Shown here: positions 23,897 to 28,506 of the stretch, in pieces
Layout of the letters: the number at the start of each line of letters is the position of its first letter
Position numbering within the stretch: the stretch's first letter is position 1
NCBI GenBank assembly: GCA_028864975.1
Contig: JAGWLG010000025.1
Span: forward strand, 1-52,222
DNA: 52,222 nt
From: Thermoplasmata archaeon
GTDB lineage: Archaea > Thermoplasmatota > Thermoplasmata > Lutacidiplasmatales > UBA184
Direction: 5' to 3'
Translations under genes and position numbers: made by a program
Notes under the pieces: model-generated
Seen by the model: only the letters and a program-made list of their open reading frames with translations
Told to the model about the DNA's origin: nothing
The model's database searches: none

Positions 23897-26395
23897 TCAC
23901 GCGGGGTCTGACCCCAGCGACTGGTGGAGCTCTCTCCATCGACGCTGAAGGTCGGAACGCCGGACCCCCAGGTGCTGGGCCTCTTCGAGCGTCGCGCGGG
24001 CCGCAGTCCGCTCTCCTCTTGCGATCTCACCCTCGGCGCGGGCGAGGAGGACCTCGAAGAGGTAGCGGGGCAGGGCGTGGACCCTCGCAAGTTCCTCCGC
24101 ATGGGCAAGGTGGGAACGCGCCTTCTCGTGGTCTCCTCGGTGGTGGGCATGCCTCCCCGCGAGGATCGCCTGGGGGAGCTCGAAGCGGGGCCCCTCGACC
24201 GGAGGGACCAGCTGCCGTGCGCTTTCCATCGCGCTCTCCGACCGGTCCAGCGCCCCCTCGTTGAGCGCGTGATGGCTCTCTCGAAGCAGGGCCTCGGCGT
24301 GGACCAACCGAGCTCCGTGCTCTTCCCCCCAGGTCGAGACGTTCTGCAGCCTGCGGAACCCCTCTTCGGTCCGCTTCCGGAGGAAGTCGAGCTCCGCCAG
24401 CGGGATCCCCAACCGGACCTTCCGAAGCTCGTCCCCGCCGTCCTCGAAGACCCGCAGGGCACGGGCGTAGAGCGCGCGGGCCCGGTCGGTCTCTTCGTGC
24501 TCTTCGAGGTAGTAGTCTCCCAGCCGGCGGCAGGCGTCGCCAAGGAGGACGAGGTCCGGCTGCCCCTCGGCGAACCGCAGGGCCCCGTCCGCTCGCGCCA
24601 AGGCCTCGTCCAAGTCGCCCAGAGCGAGCGCGGCCTCGGCCAGGAGCCCTGAGGCCTCGATCTGCGTGATGGAGGGTCGCGTCTCGTGCGGCGCCGGCAG
24701 GAGCCCCTGGACCCGACGGCGGGCCTCGGTGTACTTCCCCTGATGGAGGTGGGTGCGCGCGAGCGCCAGCTGGACCGCTTCGTGAGGCTCGGCCGGCAGG
24801 AACATCGTGAACGCGTCCATCAACCGCTCCTCCGAACGGCGTAGCTCCCCGGCTTCCGCGAGCACCTCCCCCAGGCGCAATAGGACCTCGCGCTCCTGTT
24901 CGCGATGCTCCTTCTCCGTGGGAGGAAGCCTCTGCACCGATTCGAGCGCCCGCTCCAGCGCCTCGCGCGCCTCCGACACCCGCCCGGCGTGTCGCGCGAC
25001 ATGGAAGAGGCGGGTGTTGTACTCGAACGATCGCAGGTCGTGCCGTCCCAGATGGAAATGGACCGAGAGGTCGCGGACCCATGCCTCCTCTCCCCGAGGG
25101 CCTGGACCCAGGACCTCCATCACCTCGGCCAATCGTCGATGCATCCGGCGCCGCCGCGTCTCGGTCAGCATCGACAGGAGACGCTGCCGCTCCTCCTCCT
25201 CTCGGAACCGATAGCGCTCGTCCGGGAGCTCCTCGAGCACACCCGAGCGGACGAGCCGCTCGAGCGACCGGGCGACCTCCTCCTCATCACCCTCGGCGAC
25301 CTTGGCCAGGGCCGCAAAGGGGAACTCGTCGCCGAGCAGCGCGCCATACGCGAGGAGCTTCTCGGCGAGCTCGCTGACCTTTCCCCGGTTCCTCGACGAC
25401 CTCGAAGGTTCCTCTCGGACGCGGTCGGCACGAGGGCCCTCGGTAGGGGACGCACTCTCTCCACTTCCTCCCCCGCGGACCGCGCGGCCCCGCTCGCCCC
25501 GCGCGAGCCGTTCCAGGAAGAGCGGGTTCCCCTCGCTTTCGGCAAAGAGGCGTGTCACCGTGTCAGGGTCCGGTGGTTGGTCGGCGTTGAGCCAGCGGAG
25601 GTAGTCGCGGACCTCGTCCATGTTGAACGGGCGCACCGAATGGACCTCCAGGCCCCCTTCCCTCCCCAACGACTCGAGGACCTCTCGGGAGGGAGCCGCC
25701 AGTTCCTCGAGAGGGAGGGAGGTGAGCATTACTCCCAGGGGCAGGCCAGGGGCATGGCGGATCAGGAACTTCGCGAACTCGAGCGTCGTGCTGTCCGCGA
25801 AGTGGACATCCTCCAGGACGAGGAGGAGCGGTTGACGATGGGCGACGTTCGCGAGGGTCTGGAAGAGTCGGTCGAAGAGGGCCAAGCGGTCCTCCTCCAC
25901 CCCGGCTCCGGCACGGTCGAGGGACGCCCAAACACGGTCGGGGCCCTCCTCCGAGGAGCTCGGTTCCGTCGCGGGCCCTTCGGGCCCTCTCCAGGCCATG
26001 AGCCCCAGCGGAAGCAAGCTGGTGGGGGCATGACGTTCCGGGGTCCAGATCGAACGGAGCGCCCCGTCCGGGCCTTCGCTCCCTCGGAGCTGTCCCGGGG
26101 TAAGGCCACGGAGGGCCTCCTTGATCGTCTCGAACGGCTGGGGGATCTCGCGCGGCTGCGCCCGTCCCTCGAGCACCACGAACCCCCCTCGGCGGGCCTC
26201 CTCGGAGAGCGTGCCTGCGACGGCGCTTTTGCCGATGCCGGTCTCTCCCACCAAGAGCACCGCCGCGCCCTTCCCATCGCGCGCGCGCTCGAGCCAGACG
26301 AAGAGCGCGTCCAGGAGCTCGCCCCTCCCGACGAAGGGGTGGGCCGCCGTTGTGGCGGAGGGGGGACGCGCGAGGGCCACGGACGGCCAAGGCAT
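23897..26395 (-). CDS. STAND-like AAA ATPase (AAA_16 type) with winged-helix and TPR repeats, no effector domain
   Basis: FVGRGEL, Walker A GETGIGKS (26225-26248), Walker B LLLVLEDVH, SEGNPLFL (GxP), then helical TPR-like repeats to the C-terminus. Confidence 0.85.
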   Translation of the reverse strand: MPWPSVALARPPSATTAAHPFVGRGELLDALFVWLERARDGKGAAVLLVGETGIGKSAVAGTLSEEARRGGFVVLEGRAQPREIPQPFETIKEALRGLTPGQLRGSEGPDGALRSIWTPERHAPTSLLPLGLMAWRGPEGPATEPSSSEEGPDRVWASLDRAGAGVEEDRLALFDRLFQTLANVAHRQPLLLVLEDVHFADSTTLEFAKFLIRHAPGLPLGVMLTSLPLEELAAPSREVLESLGREGGLEVHSVRPFNMDEVRDYLRWLNADQPPDPDTVTRLFAESEGNPLFLERLARGERGRAVRGGGSGESASPTEGPRADRVREEPSRSSRNRGKVSELAEKLLAYGALLGDEFPFAALAKVAEGDEEEVARSLERLVRSGVLEELPDERYRFREEEERQRLLSMLTETRRRRMHRRLAEVMEVLGPGPRGEEAWVRDLSVHFHLGRHDLRSFEYNTRLFHVARHAGRVSEAREALERALESVQRLPPTEKEHREQEREVLLRLGEVLAEAGELRRSEERLMDAFTMFLPAEPHEAVQLALARTHLHQGKYTEARRRVQGLLPAPHETRPSITQIEASGLLAEAALALGDLDEALARADGALRFAEGQPDLVLLGDACRRLGDYYLEEHEETDRARALYARALRVFEDGGDELRKVRLGIPLAELDFLRKRTEEGFRRLQNVSTWGEEHGARLVHAEALLRESHHALNEGALDRSESAMESARQLVPPVEGPRFELPQAILAGRHAHHRGDHEKARSHLAHAEELARVHALPRYLFEVLLARAEGEIARGERTAARATLEEAQHLGVRRSDLQRRWRELHQSLGSDPA

Positions 26396-26455
26396 GCGTC
26401 GGTATATCTTGCGGACCGTCGAGCGGGTCGACGGGTCCCGCGCACCGGCCCGCCG

Positions 26456-28090
26456 TCAGGGGGTCGGACGCGGGGGGCTCTCCGCGCCAGGGCCCTCCGG
26501 GGTCGAAGGGACCTCCGGCGGTCCGCGAGCTTCCCCCCCGGTCGGTAGGCCTAGCTTCTCCCTTAGCTCACGGTGCTGGGGAATGAGCGCCGTCGCATAG
26601 GCGTCCACGTCCATCCCTTCCGCCCGTTCAAGTTCGGTGCGCGCCCGCTCCGGGTCGCCCCAGAGCTGGTAGAGGAGGGCGAGGCGAAGGTGCATCTCGG
26701 AGATCTGCGGGGGATAGCCCATCTCCTCCGCCATTCGAAGGGAGCGTTGGAAGGAGGCCTCCGCCTCACCGTACCTTCCGCGGCGGATGGCCAGAAGGCC
26801 ATCGTTCATCGCGATCTGCTGCAGGGCGATGGGGTCCTGCAAACGCTCGAGGATCCGACGGGCCTCGCGGTTGTCGCGCTCGGCCTCGTCCAGCTGACCC
26901 AGGGTCAATCGGAACTCGACGGCGTTGAAGAGGGTCCATCCGGCCATCCGCCGATCGTGGGCACGCTCGGCGAACTGGTGCCCTCGCTCGAGCCACTTCA
27001 CGCCCTCGGCGGGGTCCGTGGGTCCCACCGCCACCGCGAGGTTGTTGCAGGCCCGAGAGGCTTCGTGCCAGTCCCCTGCCCGCTCCACCATCTGGAGGGC
27101 CCGTCGGTAGTATTCCACGGCCTTGAGGACATCGCCCTCTTTCCCCGCATTCGAGTAGGCGTTCCCGAGGTCGACGTAGCAGCGGGCGATCTCTTTTGCG
27201 TCCGCGGTGGGGTCGAGCAGTTCCAACGACCGTTGCCCTTCGTCGATGGCCAAGTGATTGTTCCCCTCGAGCGATGCGATACGTCCCATCAGGCGGTGGA
27301 CGCGAGCAAGTCCCCGGCGGTGCCCTTCCTTCTCGAGGAGCTGCAGGGCGTCAGCGCAGAGCTCCCGGCCGCGATCCCCCTGGGCTTGGTTGCGGGCCAC
27401 TTCGGCCCGGGCGAGGAGGATGAGCGCCCGGAGCACGGACTTCTGAGGAGGGACCAGCTCGAGCGCCTCCACGTACAGTCGGTCGGCCTTCAAGTCGTCG
27501 TTCATGAGGCCGTAGAGCTCGCCGAGCTCGAGCAGCAGGCCGGCTTCCTCCTCGCGGTGGTCTCCTTGGAGCTCCCTCAGGTCGGCCCGGGCGCGCTCCA
27601 GGTGGTGGGCGGAGATCTCGGGGGCCAGGGCCTCCCGGGCCAGGCCCGCGGAACGGCGGTTGTACCGATAGGAACGGTCGTGGACACGGCCCAGGAAGTA
27701 GTGCCGACCCAGCTCTGGCAGGACCTCCGCGGGGGGGTCCGGATACAGCTGTTCGTACGCCTCGCCGATCTTCCGGTGGATCACACGGACCCGGCTCTCC
27801 GTCATCTCGCGGTAGAGTCGCATCCGAACGTCCTCCTGGACGAAGCTGAAGCGCTCGCCCCCCGGTCGCTCCCGAAGGAGTCCCTGGTGGACCAGCCGCT
27901 CGAGCAGCTCGGCCAGAGGCTCTTCGGAAAGTCCCGTCGCGGTACGCAGGAGCGCGAAATCGAACTCCTTCCCGATGGCGCTGGCGTAGGCCAGCACCCT
28001 CTTCTCTTCGTCCGAGAGCCGCTCCAGAGGAAGGTTCGCCCGCTCCCAGGTGGGGGTTCTCGGAGCCGGGGCCGACACAGGAAGAACCAT
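26456..28090 (-). CDS. Winged-helix + TPR protein, ATPase-less paralog of the adjacent STAND protein
   Basis: VLAYASAIGKEFDF..LERLVHQGLL..IHRKIGEAYE aligns by eye with LLAYGALLGDEFPF..LERLVRSGVL..MHRRLAEVME of the neighbour. TPR motifs include CYVDLGNAY and ACNNLAVA. ATG 28090 is preceded by GGGGAAGAGG. Confidence 0.85.
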   Translation of the reverse strand: MVLPVSAPAPRTPTWERANLPLERLSDEEKRVLAYASAIGKEFDFALLRTATGLSEEPLAELLERLVHQGLLRERPGGERFSFVQEDVRMRLYREMTESRVRVIHRKIGEAYEQLYPDPPAEVLPELGRHYFLGRVHDRSYRYNRRSAGLAREALAPEISAHHLERARADLRELQGDHREEEAGLLLELGELYGLMNDDLKADRLYVEALELVPPQKSVLRALILLARAEVARNQAQGDRGRELCADALQLLEKEGHRRGLARVHRLMGRIASLEGNNHLAIDEGQRSLELLDPTADAKEIARCYVDLGNAYSNAGKEGDVLKAVEYYRRALQMVERAGDWHEASRACNNLAVAVGPTDPAEGVKWLERGHQFAERAHDRRMAGWTLFNAVEFRLTLGQLDEAERDNREARRILERLQDPIALQQIAMNDGLLAIRRGRYGEAEASFQRSLRMAEEMGYPPQISEMHLRLALLYQLWGDPERARTELERAEGMDVDAYATALIPQHRELREKLGLPTGGEARGPPEVPSTPEGPGAESPPRPTP

Positions 28091-28212
28091 CCTCTTCCCC
28101 CTCAAGAAACCTCCTCGGCGGAGCTTCGCGGGCTCGTGGCCAGGCCCGCCAGCGAGGATCGCGGCGCCTCCCCCAAGCTTAAGAAGAGCCACGGGAGTCG
28201 CCCTCGCCCCCC

Positions 28213-28506
28213 ATGGCCGAAGAAGATCCTGGGAAGACCGGCACCGACCGCAAGGGACGGTCGAAGCGGAGCCCCGCGGGGGCTCGCCGCCGGATCCCTC
28301 TACCTACCGCGCGTCAGGTGGGTTTCGGTCTGTTCGGCCTGCTCGTCGCCCTCGCGGCCGCGTTCTACGTGTGGTGGGGTGTGGCCTTCGGGCATTGGAT
28401 CGACAACGGGGTCTATGCGATCGTCTCGACCCTTGTGGCGTTCGGCCTGGCGGGCATGTGGCTCACCCTTCCTCCACGTCCTCGTTCGAACGTCGCTCCA
28501 GCGTGA
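28213..28506 (+). CDS. Small membrane protein (2 TM), unknown function
   Basis: Basic N-terminus followed by two hydrophobic segments. Confidence 0.65.
   Translation: MAEEDPGKTGTDRKGRSKRSPAGARRRIPLPTARQVGFGLFGLLVALAAAFYVWWGVAFGHWIDNGVYAIVSTLVAFGLAGMWLTLPPRPRSNVAPA

Follow-up and report, generated by a model that had tools for sequence, protein, structure and literature searches.

Most work on STAND/NLR switches concerns immune receptors that have an executioner domain built in, and Avs systems sit in variable defence islands. Deletion of the effector domain of Avs abolishes cell death (bioRxiv 10.64898/2026.01.04.697583). PH0952 from Pyrococcus horikoshii (PDB 6MFV) and MalT from Escherichia coli (PDB 1HZ4 and 8BOB) are STAND ATPases with a TPR sensor, in which the arm and the sensor clamp the NBD (PMC6468293). 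NRG1C of Arabidopsis is an N-terminally truncated helper NLR composed of WHD-LRR only, which occurs beside the full-length NRG1A and NRG1B and inhibits both because it outcompetes them for their activator, the EDS1-SAG101 complex (PMC12177489; bioRxiv 10.1101/2021.01.27.428547).

The locus described here lies in a 52,222-nucleotide stretch of DNA, the window, from an uncultured acid-mine/soil archaeon of the Thermoplasmata. It encodes an effector-less STAND ATPase of 832 residues (LONG) and an ATPase-less STAND paralog of 544 residues (SHORT), and the two together have the appearance of a conserved regulatory pair and not of an immune system.

Organization of the locus

The gene encoding LONG (positions 23897–26395, minus strand, from translation) is located downstream of that encoding SHORT (26456–28090, minus strand, translated from an ATG). 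The spacer between them is 60 nucleotides long (26396–26455), in agreement with a preliminary description of the window, which reported two co-oriented genes at this distance. The order of genes in the neighbourhood is ProRS, a small membrane ORF, SHORT, LONG, a UbiE-type methyltransferase, and an aminotransferase. Apart from the window, 40 loci of the family, inspected in seven genera, have the same housekeeping synteny. No mobile-element or defence genes were found adjoining SHORT or LONG, and the context is not that of a defence island. The 495 nucleotides between SHORT and ProRS contain a conserved 97-residue ORF divergent from SHORT (28213–28506, plus strand, located by tblastn) and leave no space in which an ATPase could be encoded ahead of SHORT. 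The ORF has tblastn matches in 21 related loci, with identities of 42–67%, and no Pfam family was found for it. From two hydrophobic stretches, recognized by eye, the encoded protein is predicted to cross the membrane twice. SHORT and the ORF share one intergenic region.

An alternative GTG start at position 28192 would extend SHORT to 578 residues. The ATG start is supported by the position of a methionine about 20–25 residues before the conserved winged-helix motif, which is the start in 17 of 20 SHORT orthologs, and by a TATA-like box, GGTTTCTTGA, found by pattern about 20 nucleotides upstream of the ATG (28102–28111, minus strand). AT-rich boxes occur at a similar distance upstream of SHORT in most of the orthologous loci. 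The spacer between the genes contains another TATA-like box, AAGATATACC, recognized by pattern only (26401–26410, minus strand) and positioned about 25 nucleotides upstream of the conserved GTG of LONG; similar boxes are present in G001–G003. The GTG at 26380 (minus strand) is a possible alternative leaderless start of LONG. The pattern in the spacer points to a separate promoter for LONG in the window's genus, where SHORT and LONG seem to be provided with one putative promoter each.

Structure of LONG

LONG belongs to the MalT/PH0952 kind of STAND ATPases but has no effector; in it, an NBD-HD module, a disordered linker, and a WHD are followed by an arm and a TPR sensor. Its Pfam matches are limited to AAA_16 (residues 20–219, E 3e-19) and TPR, and no effector or output domain was found by Pfam outside these. 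The P-loop NBD contains the Walker A (GETGIGKS, residues 50–57; 26225–26248, minus strand) and Walker B (LLLVLEDVHFAD, residues 190–201; 25793–25828, minus strand) motifs that define MalT/PH0952-like STANDs, and the helical domain includes a GxP-type motif (EGNPLFLERL, residues 288–297; 25505–25534, minus strand). The motifs are intact, and they are conserved across all LONGs at this locus. In the AF2 model of LONG (pLDDT 84.3), the winged helix comprises residues 342–409, after the GxP-type helical domain, the N-terminus (residues 1–18) is disordered, and the TPR extends to the C-terminus. The presence of the arm and TPR sensor after the NOD is evident from fold matches to MalT domain III (1hz4_A; Z 26.5, 335 aligned, rmsd 4.1) and to the MalT NOD-arm (8bob_D; Z 15.1, 349 residues, model residues 14–495). 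A helix with the sequence T-E-T/S-R-R-R-x-x-H-R-K is conserved after the wing across the family.

The linker connecting NBD-HD to the WHD (residues 304–337; 25385–25486, minus strand) is of low complexity and has a pLDDT below 50. SHORT starts at the equivalent point, and its BLASTP alignment to LONG begins at LONG residue 339. The LONG of the relative G001 has a frameshift within the same linker. A disordered insert within the NBD (residues 106–165; 25901–26080, minus strand, from the AF2 model) occupies the site at which larger LONG paralogs contain a DUF835/iKaiC domain.

Structure of SHORT

SHORT is a derivative of the STAND family and not a STAND ATPase. It has Pfam matches to TPR families only and none to AAA_16, and the NBD-HD ATPase module is absent from it and from all its orthologs. 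Residues 339–828 of LONG align with the part of SHORT that extends from the winged-helix domain to the C-terminal end (BLASTP, 28% identity, 505 residues, E 6e-22), which confirms the initial view that the 544-residue protein begins at the winged-helix region and is paralogous to the C-terminal half of the ATPase. The reported lack of nuclease, TIR, kinase, cyclase, and LuxR domains was reproduced by Pfam for both SHORT and LONG. The AlphaFold models of the two proteins contain no extra folded domain, and their termini are disordered.

The AF2 model of SHORT (pLDDT 88.8, pTM 0.76) begins with a disordered N-terminus (residues 1–19), followed by the winged-helix domain (residues 27–94; 27809–28012, minus strand) with the topology H-E-H-H-E-E. 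The long helix H12 (residues 96–115), which contains the motif TESRxRVIHRK, precedes the arm and TPR solenoid (residues 124–512) and a disordered tail. Fold matches include the TPR of LGN/Pins (Z 26.7), Rap/NprR (Z 21–23), and MalT domain III (Z 20.0), and the solenoid resembles TPRs that bind peptides or proteins; SHORT also aligns with PH0952 (6mfv) over 494 columns. In an alignment of the window's SHORT with 19 orthologs (n = 20), the best conserved parts are the WHD and the segment of H12 and the arm, and residues S99, R100, R102, and H105 of H12 are invariant.

An N-terminal winged helix followed by a Rap/NprR-like TPR (Z 21–23) is what a ligand-sensing transcription factor would have, with the winged helix on DNA and the TPR on a signal, in the manner of RRNPP regulators or of an ATPase-less PH0952 or MalT. 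The divergent orientation of SHORT and the small conserved ORF, with their common intergenic region, fits such a role. However, the WHD is acidic (pI 5.2, 15 D+E versus 12 K+R), which speaks against DNA binding, the STAND-type WHD packs on the NBD and not on DNA in PH0952 and MalT (PMC6468293), and the LuxR and ArsR domains that are the DNA binders of MalT and PH0952 are absent here. A transcription factor is therefore a highly improbable identity for SHORT.

Distribution and evolution of the pair

Orthologs of SHORT, about 490–550 residues long, occur in 133 of the 180 genomes of this Thermoplasmata family, and some LONG paralog in 157. All SHORT-positive genomes are LONG-positive, and both genes are absent from 23 of the 180 sampled genomes. 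This joint absence could reflect a single event in a subclade with reduced genomes and, hence, carries little statistical weight. The preliminary description allowed that the upstream gene might be a fragment with orthologs fused to the ATPase; instead, the orthologs, which comprise at least 120 protein clusters of 492–547 residues and are present in 133 of the 180 genomes, are all ATPase-less. Decay to a gene fragment, or an artefact of annotation, could account for SHORT beginning exactly at the end of LONG's disordered linker, in which the LONG of G001 is frameshifted, but this explanation is refuted by the intact orthologs in 133 genomes (within a tight range of 492–547 residues among the best 120 protein clusters), a dN/dS of 0.10–0.18, and the conservation of both the start position and the upstream AT-rich box.

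The expected conservation of the pair holds in part. SHORT and LONG are kept together in three genera (4/4 of the loci inspected in g1, 20/21 in g4, and 5/6 in g5), the adjacent LONG has been lost and SHORT kept in three others (g2, g3, and g7), and in one genus SHORT has been lost and LONG is alone. Therefore, neither gene strictly needs its neighbour.

The gene tree groups orthologs by genus. All SHORTs belong to one clade (SH-aLRT 98–99), which diverged before the split of the two LONG clades. A full-length paralog encoded on contig C59 is closer to SHORT than LONG is (34% identity, E 1e-66), and the TPR of SHORT is 24% identical to that of the adjacent LONG and 31% to that of the C59-type LONG. 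SHORT is an older paralog lineage and not a duplicate of the C-terminal half of the adjacent LONG; a sister relation of the two was rejected (AU p = 0.006). SHORT lost the NBD-HD module once, early in the history of the family. From then on, strong purifying selection has preserved it at a single housekeeping locus, where it is passed on vertically. Purifying selection acts on LONG as well; dN/dS is 0.10–0.18 for SHORT versus 0.26–0.39 for LONG. SHORT evolves more slowly than any LONG; LONG is about twice as fast and has a very long branch in the window's genus.

Recombinants of the P0124 type combine the NBD-HD-WHD of a C59-type (second-clade) LONG with the arm-TPR of the SHORT clade, and the breakpoint is sharp and located at H12. 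They were found at four loci as three distinct sequences with a mutual identity of 58–66%. These natural recombinants indicate that a SHORT-type arm-TPR sensor can serve a STAND core, and they already demonstrate that the sensor arm can be exchanged as a cassette.

The preliminary description interpreted the genes as an immune sensor/helper pair with an effector encoded elsewhere. In an antiviral system of this kind, one protein would sense a viral protein, the other would help or guard, and the distant effector would execute. Avs-type sensors have the STAND-plus-TPR architecture too, SHORT and LONG are adjacent, about 20 STAND paralogs are encoded in the genome of the window, and the rate of LONG, twice that of SHORT, with its very long branch in the window's genus, could be read in the same way. 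Against this, Pfam searches of SHORT and of five of the genome's LONG paralogs, LONG included, found no effector domain. PADLOC-DB 2.0.0 (library of 2023) contains no family that matches LONG and only a generic TPR model that matches SHORT. The locus is fixed between ProRS and the UbiE-type methyltransferase and aminotransferase, vertically inherited in the 40 related loci inspected, and adjoined by neither mobile-element nor defence genes, and selection on it is purifying, not diversifying. The immune interpretation is thus not supported, and an antiviral function is very unlikely.

Possible function of SHORT

The other half of the initial interpretation, that SHORT is a decoy or regulator of full-length paralogs, remains the best available. 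By analogy with plant NRG1C, SHORT may modulate full-length STAND paralogs in trans, a reading that we hold tentatively and at a little less than even confidence. Its targets would be the LONG next to it, in genomes that have one, and the ubiquitous LONG of the C59 type encoded at another site. SHORT could compete for the ligand or partner of its TPR groove, as WHD-LRR-only NRG1C does with NRG1A and NRG1B, or the WHD and arm of SHORT could dock on the NBD of a paralog and keep it closed, mimicking the arm-plus-sensor clamp of PH0952 and MalT. The output of the ATPases would probably be oligomerization-dependent scaffolding or regulation, and not cell killing.

Modulation in trans is favoured by the single clade of SHORT, its age, its dN/dS, and the synteny in 40 loci, and by the finding that no SHORT-positive genome is without a LONG paralog. 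In SHORT, conservation is highest in the regions (WHD, H12, and arm) by which STANDs contact their NBD (PMC6468293), and the P0124-type recombinants, the TPR folds like those that bind peptides or proteins, and the precedent of NRG1C point in the same direction. The losses of either neighbour and the separate putative promoters in the window's genus count against it. Since the TPRs of SHORT and the LONGs are just 24–31% identical, it is not obvious that they would compete for one ligand, and the conservation of the WHD and arm of SHORT could be purely structural.

A rather unlikely alternative is that SHORT, once it had lost the ATPase, became a TPR scaffold or adaptor with a function of its own, for example one assembling or chaperoning a housekeeping complex, and that its adjacency to LONG is only inherited gene order. 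Genera g2, g3, and g7 have retained SHORT with no LONG beside it, and SHORT evolves more slowly than any LONG, is older than the split of the LONG clades, has a putative promoter of its own in g1, and resides in a housekeeping neighbourhood. However, none of the sampled genomes has SHORT without a LONG paralog, the most conserved features of SHORT are the WHD and the H12 motif, which a plain TPR scaffold would not need, and P0124-type recombinants employ an arm-TPR of the SHORT type as the sensor for a STAND core.

A more speculative and unlikely form of action in trans is that of split receptors, in which SHORT would be a free arm-plus-sensor module that plugs into the NBD-HD-WHD engine of paralogs, so that one core could be served by alternative sensors. 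The P0124-type proteins would be the covalent version of such receptors, which would represent a prokaryotic, non-immune counterpart of plant truncated-NLR regulation. If SHORT does regulate full-length paralogs, the pair would make a simple two-protein model in which to study the control of a STAND core by sensor arms.

Comparison with known systems

The order of NBD, HD with a GxP-type motif, WHD, arm, and TPR sensor in LONG is the same as in MalT and PH0952. Unlike LONG, which is without an output domain, these two proteins have a DNA-binding domain, of the LuxR type in MalT and ArsR-like in PH0952, and the sequence similarity of LONG to MalT is far below family cut-offs. To our knowledge, no ATPase-less partner of MalT or PH0952 has been described. 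RRNPP-type HTH-TPR regulators have a DNA-binding N-terminus; the N-terminal domain of SHORT is a STAND-type winged helix, and its pI of 5.2 makes DNA binding less likely.

LONG shares with Avs1–4, further Avs families, and bNACHT proteins the nature of a prokaryotic STAND ATPase with a repeat sensor of the kind that binds proteins. By contrast to these systems, the LONG locus has no effector on the protein or in the operon and occupies a fixed housekeeping site, the context of which, unlike that of Avs/bNACHT islands, is constant in 40 related loci from seven genera. The family is set apart by its examined members being without an output domain, its vertical inheritance among housekeeping genes, and its strongly conserved ATPase-less member.

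Plant paired NLRs resemble the locus in the adjacency of the genes, here with a 60-nucleotide gap; however, both of their members, which act together in a hetero-complex, have an NBD, and SHORT lacks one. NRG1C is a eukaryotic immune receptor with LRR instead of TPR, NRG1A has an RPW8 executioner domain, and, unlike NRG1C, SHORT is an old lineage that is 24–31% identical to the sensors of LONGs and is not sister to its neighbour. Like NRG1C, SHORT consists of a WHD and a repeat sensor, is truncated at the N-terminus, occurs beside full-length paralogs, and is kept by selection. If SHORT regulates these paralogs, the control of NLR-type switches by truncated WHD-repeat proteins, as exemplified by NRG1C, also arose in archaea.

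Organization of the locus

The minus-strand STAND ATPase LONG (23897–26395, 832 residues) and its ATPase-less paralog SHORT (26456–28090, minus strand, 544 residues counted from the ATG) are encoded by adjoining genes separated by a gap of 60 nt. The G+C content of the window is 64–71%, and its genome bin has a size of 3.6 Mb and is 89.6% complete. DNA near-identical to the window is present in mine-drainage and soil metagenomes. Pfam assigns AAA_16 (residues 20–219) and TPR domains to LONG and TPR families alone to SHORT, and detects no nuclease, TIR, kinase, cyclase or LuxR domain in either protein. Residues 339–828 of LONG align with the part of SHORT that starts at its winged helix and continues to its C-terminus, with 28% identity over 505 residues (BLASTP, E 6e-22). 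The preliminary description of two neighboring paralogous genes without effector domains is therefore correct.

A GTG at 28192, upstream of the ATG, is an alternative start that would extend SHORT to 578 residues. The ATG was chosen because a methionine precedes the conserved L-S-x-x-E-x-R-V-L-x-Y-A helix by 20–25 residues in 17 of 20 SHORT orthologs, and an AT-rich TATA-like box is positioned about 20–35 nt upstream of the ATG in most loci. A scan for sigma-70 promoters and terminators, which is not applicable to archaea, gave no match. No ATPase is hidden upstream of SHORT, where the 495 nt to the gene of prolyl-tRNA synthetase (ProRS) contain a divergent 97-residue open reading frame (28213–28506, plus strand). 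The small frame has no Pfam family and contains two hydrophobic stretches that, on visual inspection, would span the membrane. It is conserved in 21 related loci, where it occupies the same position and has 42–67% identity. Gene callers could easily overlook such a frame.

Forty orthologous loci were fetched, and their gene order was read where the contig reaches far enough. Every sufficiently long contig has the order ProRS, small frame on the opposite strand, variable middle, UbiE-type methyltransferase, and aminotransferase. The content between the small frame and UbiE differs among the genera g1–g7 of the family, of which g1 is that of the window. SHORT together with LONG is present in 4/4 loci of g1, including the window, 20/21 of g4, and 5/6 of g5, one of which has SHORT followed by two LONGs. 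By contrast, the loci of g2, g3, and g7 contain SHORT without LONG, in one case two SHORTs, and those of g6 contain LONG without SHORT. The pair is therefore old and usually kept, as in g1, g4, and g5, but there are genera whose locus has lost one partner or the other. Tandem SHORTs precede LONG in G052 (L112) and G184 (L114), and in G010 (L044) two SHORT copies flank the UbiE gene.

Open frames of 1363–1412 residues that span SHORT and LONG were considered as fusions of the two genes; however, an in-frame stop separates the genes in 6/6 translated loci, and the long frames are artefacts of high G+C content. The LONG ortholog of G001, a genome of the same genus as the window, is split into two overlapping frames (L036:9696–12289), with the switch within the disordered linker joining the nucleotide-binding domain (NBD) to the winged-helix domain (WHD). 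It is either an assembly error or a true frameshift that separates an NBD and helical-domain part from one with WHD and TPR. The switch falls at the place where SHORT is "cut".

Structure of LONG and SHORT

In LONG, the Walker A (GETGIGKS), Walker B (LLLVLEDVHFAD), and GxP-type helical-domain (EGNPLFLERL) motifs are intact, and they are conserved across every ortholog and paralog aligned. In its AlphaFold model (pLDDT 84.3, 40-sequence alignment), an alpha/beta NBD is followed by a helical domain, a disordered 34-residue linker (304–337), a winged helix (342–409), and a helical solenoid extending to the C-terminus. The model was compared with solved PDB chains grouped by sequence into 48,161 clusters, one representative per cluster. 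The LONG sensor matches domain III of MalT (1hz4; Z 26.5, 335 residues), and residues 14–495 match the NOD-arm of MalT (8bob_D; Z 15.1, 349 residues). These matches identify LONG as a MalT/PH0952-like STAND ATPase that lacks the DNA-binding output domain present in MalT and PH0952 (PMC6468293).

The NBD of LONG contains a disordered 60-residue insert (106–165), at the same position as DUF835 in larger STAND paralogs encoded in the genome bin. Two short motifs are common to all LONG paralogs in the NBD alignment (window 25900–26140): LEGRALP-x-E-x-P-x-PF just past Walker A, and LPLGL within the variable insert. They may constitute a docking site.

The model of SHORT (pLDDT 88.8, pTM 0.76, 20-sequence alignment) comprises a winged helix (27–94), a long helix (98–115) bearing the motif TESRxRVIHRK, and about 13 helical hairpins (124–512), with disordered ends. 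TPR structures dominate the results of fold searches with the whole model, and a search of PDB sequences returned generic TPR matches and nothing more specific. The solenoid matches LGN/Pins (Z 26.7), Rap/NprR (Z 21–23), and MalT domain III (Z 20.0), and thus resembles peptide- or protein-binding TPRs. Foldseek aligned 494 columns of SHORT with PH0952 (6mfv). The best-conserved regions of SHORT are the WHD and the long helix behind it (H12) with the arm, which have mean majority frequencies of 0.63–0.66 versus 0.52–0.57 for the TPRs; residues S99, R100, R102, and H105 of H12 are invariant. A plain scaffold would not be expected to show such conservation. A DNA-binding role of the WHD is unlikely because the winged helix is acidic (pI 5.2).

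SHORT as a separate paralog lineage

A search of 5.8 billion proteins identified relatives of SHORT in at least 120 clusters of 492–547 residues. Among the matches listed, none contains AAA_16, and every organism-named cluster is from a Thermoplasmata MAG. SHORT was also tallied (E ≤ 1e-75) in the family's 180 species-representative genomes, including the unpublished G171 and G172, which enter the SHORT and LONG presence tallies only. It is present in 133/180 genomes and in 50/67 of those of high quality (g1 3/3, g2 1/1, g3 5/5, g4 115/150, g5 6/8, g7 2/3, g6 0/9). These ATPase-less clusters and genome counts show that SHORT is not a lineage-specific fragment, which was one of the outcomes that the preliminary description had named as its refutation. 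A 543-residue frame in G018, a candidate SHORT from g6, proved to be a frameshifted LONG. Within the genus of the window, dN/dS is 0.10–0.18 for SHORT and 0.26–0.39 for LONG; the values are approximate, with dS near 1.

In IQ-TREE phylogenies based on the WHD-TPR module, with 67 and 54 rows, SHORTs form one clade (SH-aLRT 98–99), as do LONGs at the ProRS locus (97), those of the window's genus having a very long stem (1.8 changes per site). Another clade of full-length LONGs spans the family and is called C59-type, after a contig of the window's genome bin. Within this bin, SHORT is closer to the C59-type LONG (34%, E 1e-66) than to the adjacent LONG. AU tests (32 rows, LG+G4), with groups named after tree inspection, reject SHORT as sister of the neighboring-LONG clade (p = 0.006) and of the C59-type clade (p = 0.008). 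SHORT is thus an older paralog lineage and did not arise as a recent copy of the C-terminal half of its neighbor.

LONG of some kind (E ≤ 1e-25) is present in 157/180 genomes, including all SHORT-positive ones, according to genome lists compared by eye. LONG occurs without SHORT in the nine g6 genomes and in roughly a dozen g4 bins, most of them incomplete. Of the 23 g4 genomes that lack both, ten are at least 90% complete, and most of the 23 have sizes of 1.2–1.6 Mb. The pattern fits a dependence of SHORT on LONG paralogs; it is possible that the co-absence reflects a single event in one reduced subclade.

Natural exchange of a sensor

Among 1.84 billion representatives searched with a profile, the 797-residue P0124 has a SHORT-like score of 603 bits (ordinary LONGs reach at most 340), yet it contains AAA_16. 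Its WHD-TPR region belongs to the SHORT clade, where the g3 SHORTs are its sister group (support 100), whereas its NBD belongs to the g3 C59-type NBD clade (97 and 99). Metagenome contigs contain P0124 itself and, at three further loci with two distinct sequences, diverged relatives of the same architecture that are 58–66% identical; recombinants of this type are located at L117:9001–11391, L118:8989–11355, and L119:1301–3691 (contigs Ga0326727/8). They are flanked by large genes of PKD-domain surface proteins, away from the ProRS locus.

P0124 was compared in 30-residue sliding segments with an ordinary C59-type LONG found in the same sample series. Residues 31–390 (NBD, helical domain, and WHD) are 63–90% identical to it, and the first 30 residues 50%. 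By contrast, residues 391–780 have 12–36% identity to the ordinary LONG and 36–76% to a g3 SHORT. The breakpoint is sharp and located at the conserved H12 helix. Together with the nested clades, it shows that a C59-type STAND core has received a SHORT-type arm-plus-TPR sensor by grafting and has retained it through speciation. The sensor arm of SHORT is thus still of a module type able to govern a STAND ATPase. P0124 as an ancestral full-length SHORT is ruled out by the sharp breakpoint and the position of the NBD-HD-WHD part within the g3 C59-type clade, and an assembly chimera is unlikely, since three diverged sequences share the architecture.

Proteins of 1684–1796 residues (P0132, P0133, P0135–P0138, and P0168) contain two complete NBD-WHD-TPR modules in tandem. 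They were considered as SHORT–LONG Rosetta fusions; however, each half scores like an ordinary LONG, and the proteins are LONG–LONG fusions.

Probable regulation rather than defense

The genome bin of the window encodes about 20 STAND paralogs. Five LONG-type paralogs examined by Pfam consist of AAA_16 and TPR. About 12 paralogs are larger (1000–1290 residues). In the three of them that were examined (1000–1100 residues; C83:17904–21077, C59:1472–4597, and C59:63579–66854), DUF835, which has been called an inactivated KaiC, "iKaiC" (PMC5847659), forms an insertion in AAA_16 that separates Walker A from Walker B. A 580-residue frame (C121:74422–76161, minus strand in L090:2001–3740) has AAA_16 at 36–200, plus about 380 residues in which Pfam finds neither TPR nor any other family. 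It is a putative distant STAND-like ATPase without a repeat sensor, a mirror image of SHORT.

The preliminary description proposed a sensor/helper or decoy/regulator pair with an effector encoded elsewhere. A defense system is less likely than a regulatory one: LONG matches no PADLOC model, the pair has a fixed place among housekeeping genes, the genes are under purifying selection, and none of the paralogs examined by Pfam has a recognizable effector. The C59-type LONG (contig C59, 139480–141996) likewise adjoins a housekeeping gene, that of quinolinate phosphoribosyltransferase. The regulatory part of the proposal remains the favored one, with SHORT and LONG most likely making up a STAND switch and a truncated paralog that regulates it. 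The arrangement itself is real and conserved, and it is undescribed in that a literature search found no paper on a SHORT–LONG module.

Given the observed architecture, single origin, selection, synteny, phyletic pattern, and sensor swap, SHORT would act in trans on full-length STAND paralogs, either by competing for a partner or by docking on the NBD of a paralog. In the resting state of PH0952 and MalT, the NBD is held in a clamp made up of the arm and the TPR sensor (PMC6468293). The nearest worked-out precedent is plant NRG1C, a WHD-LRR-only paralog encoded beside full-length NRG1A/B, which outcompetes both for EDS1-SAG101, the complex that activates them, and thereby blocks them (PMC12177489; bioRxiv 10.1101/2021.01.27.428547). 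The sensor of SHORT has only 24–31% identity to those of LONGs, which makes simple ligand competition less obvious; docking on the NBD is therefore kept beside competition as a way in which SHORT might act.
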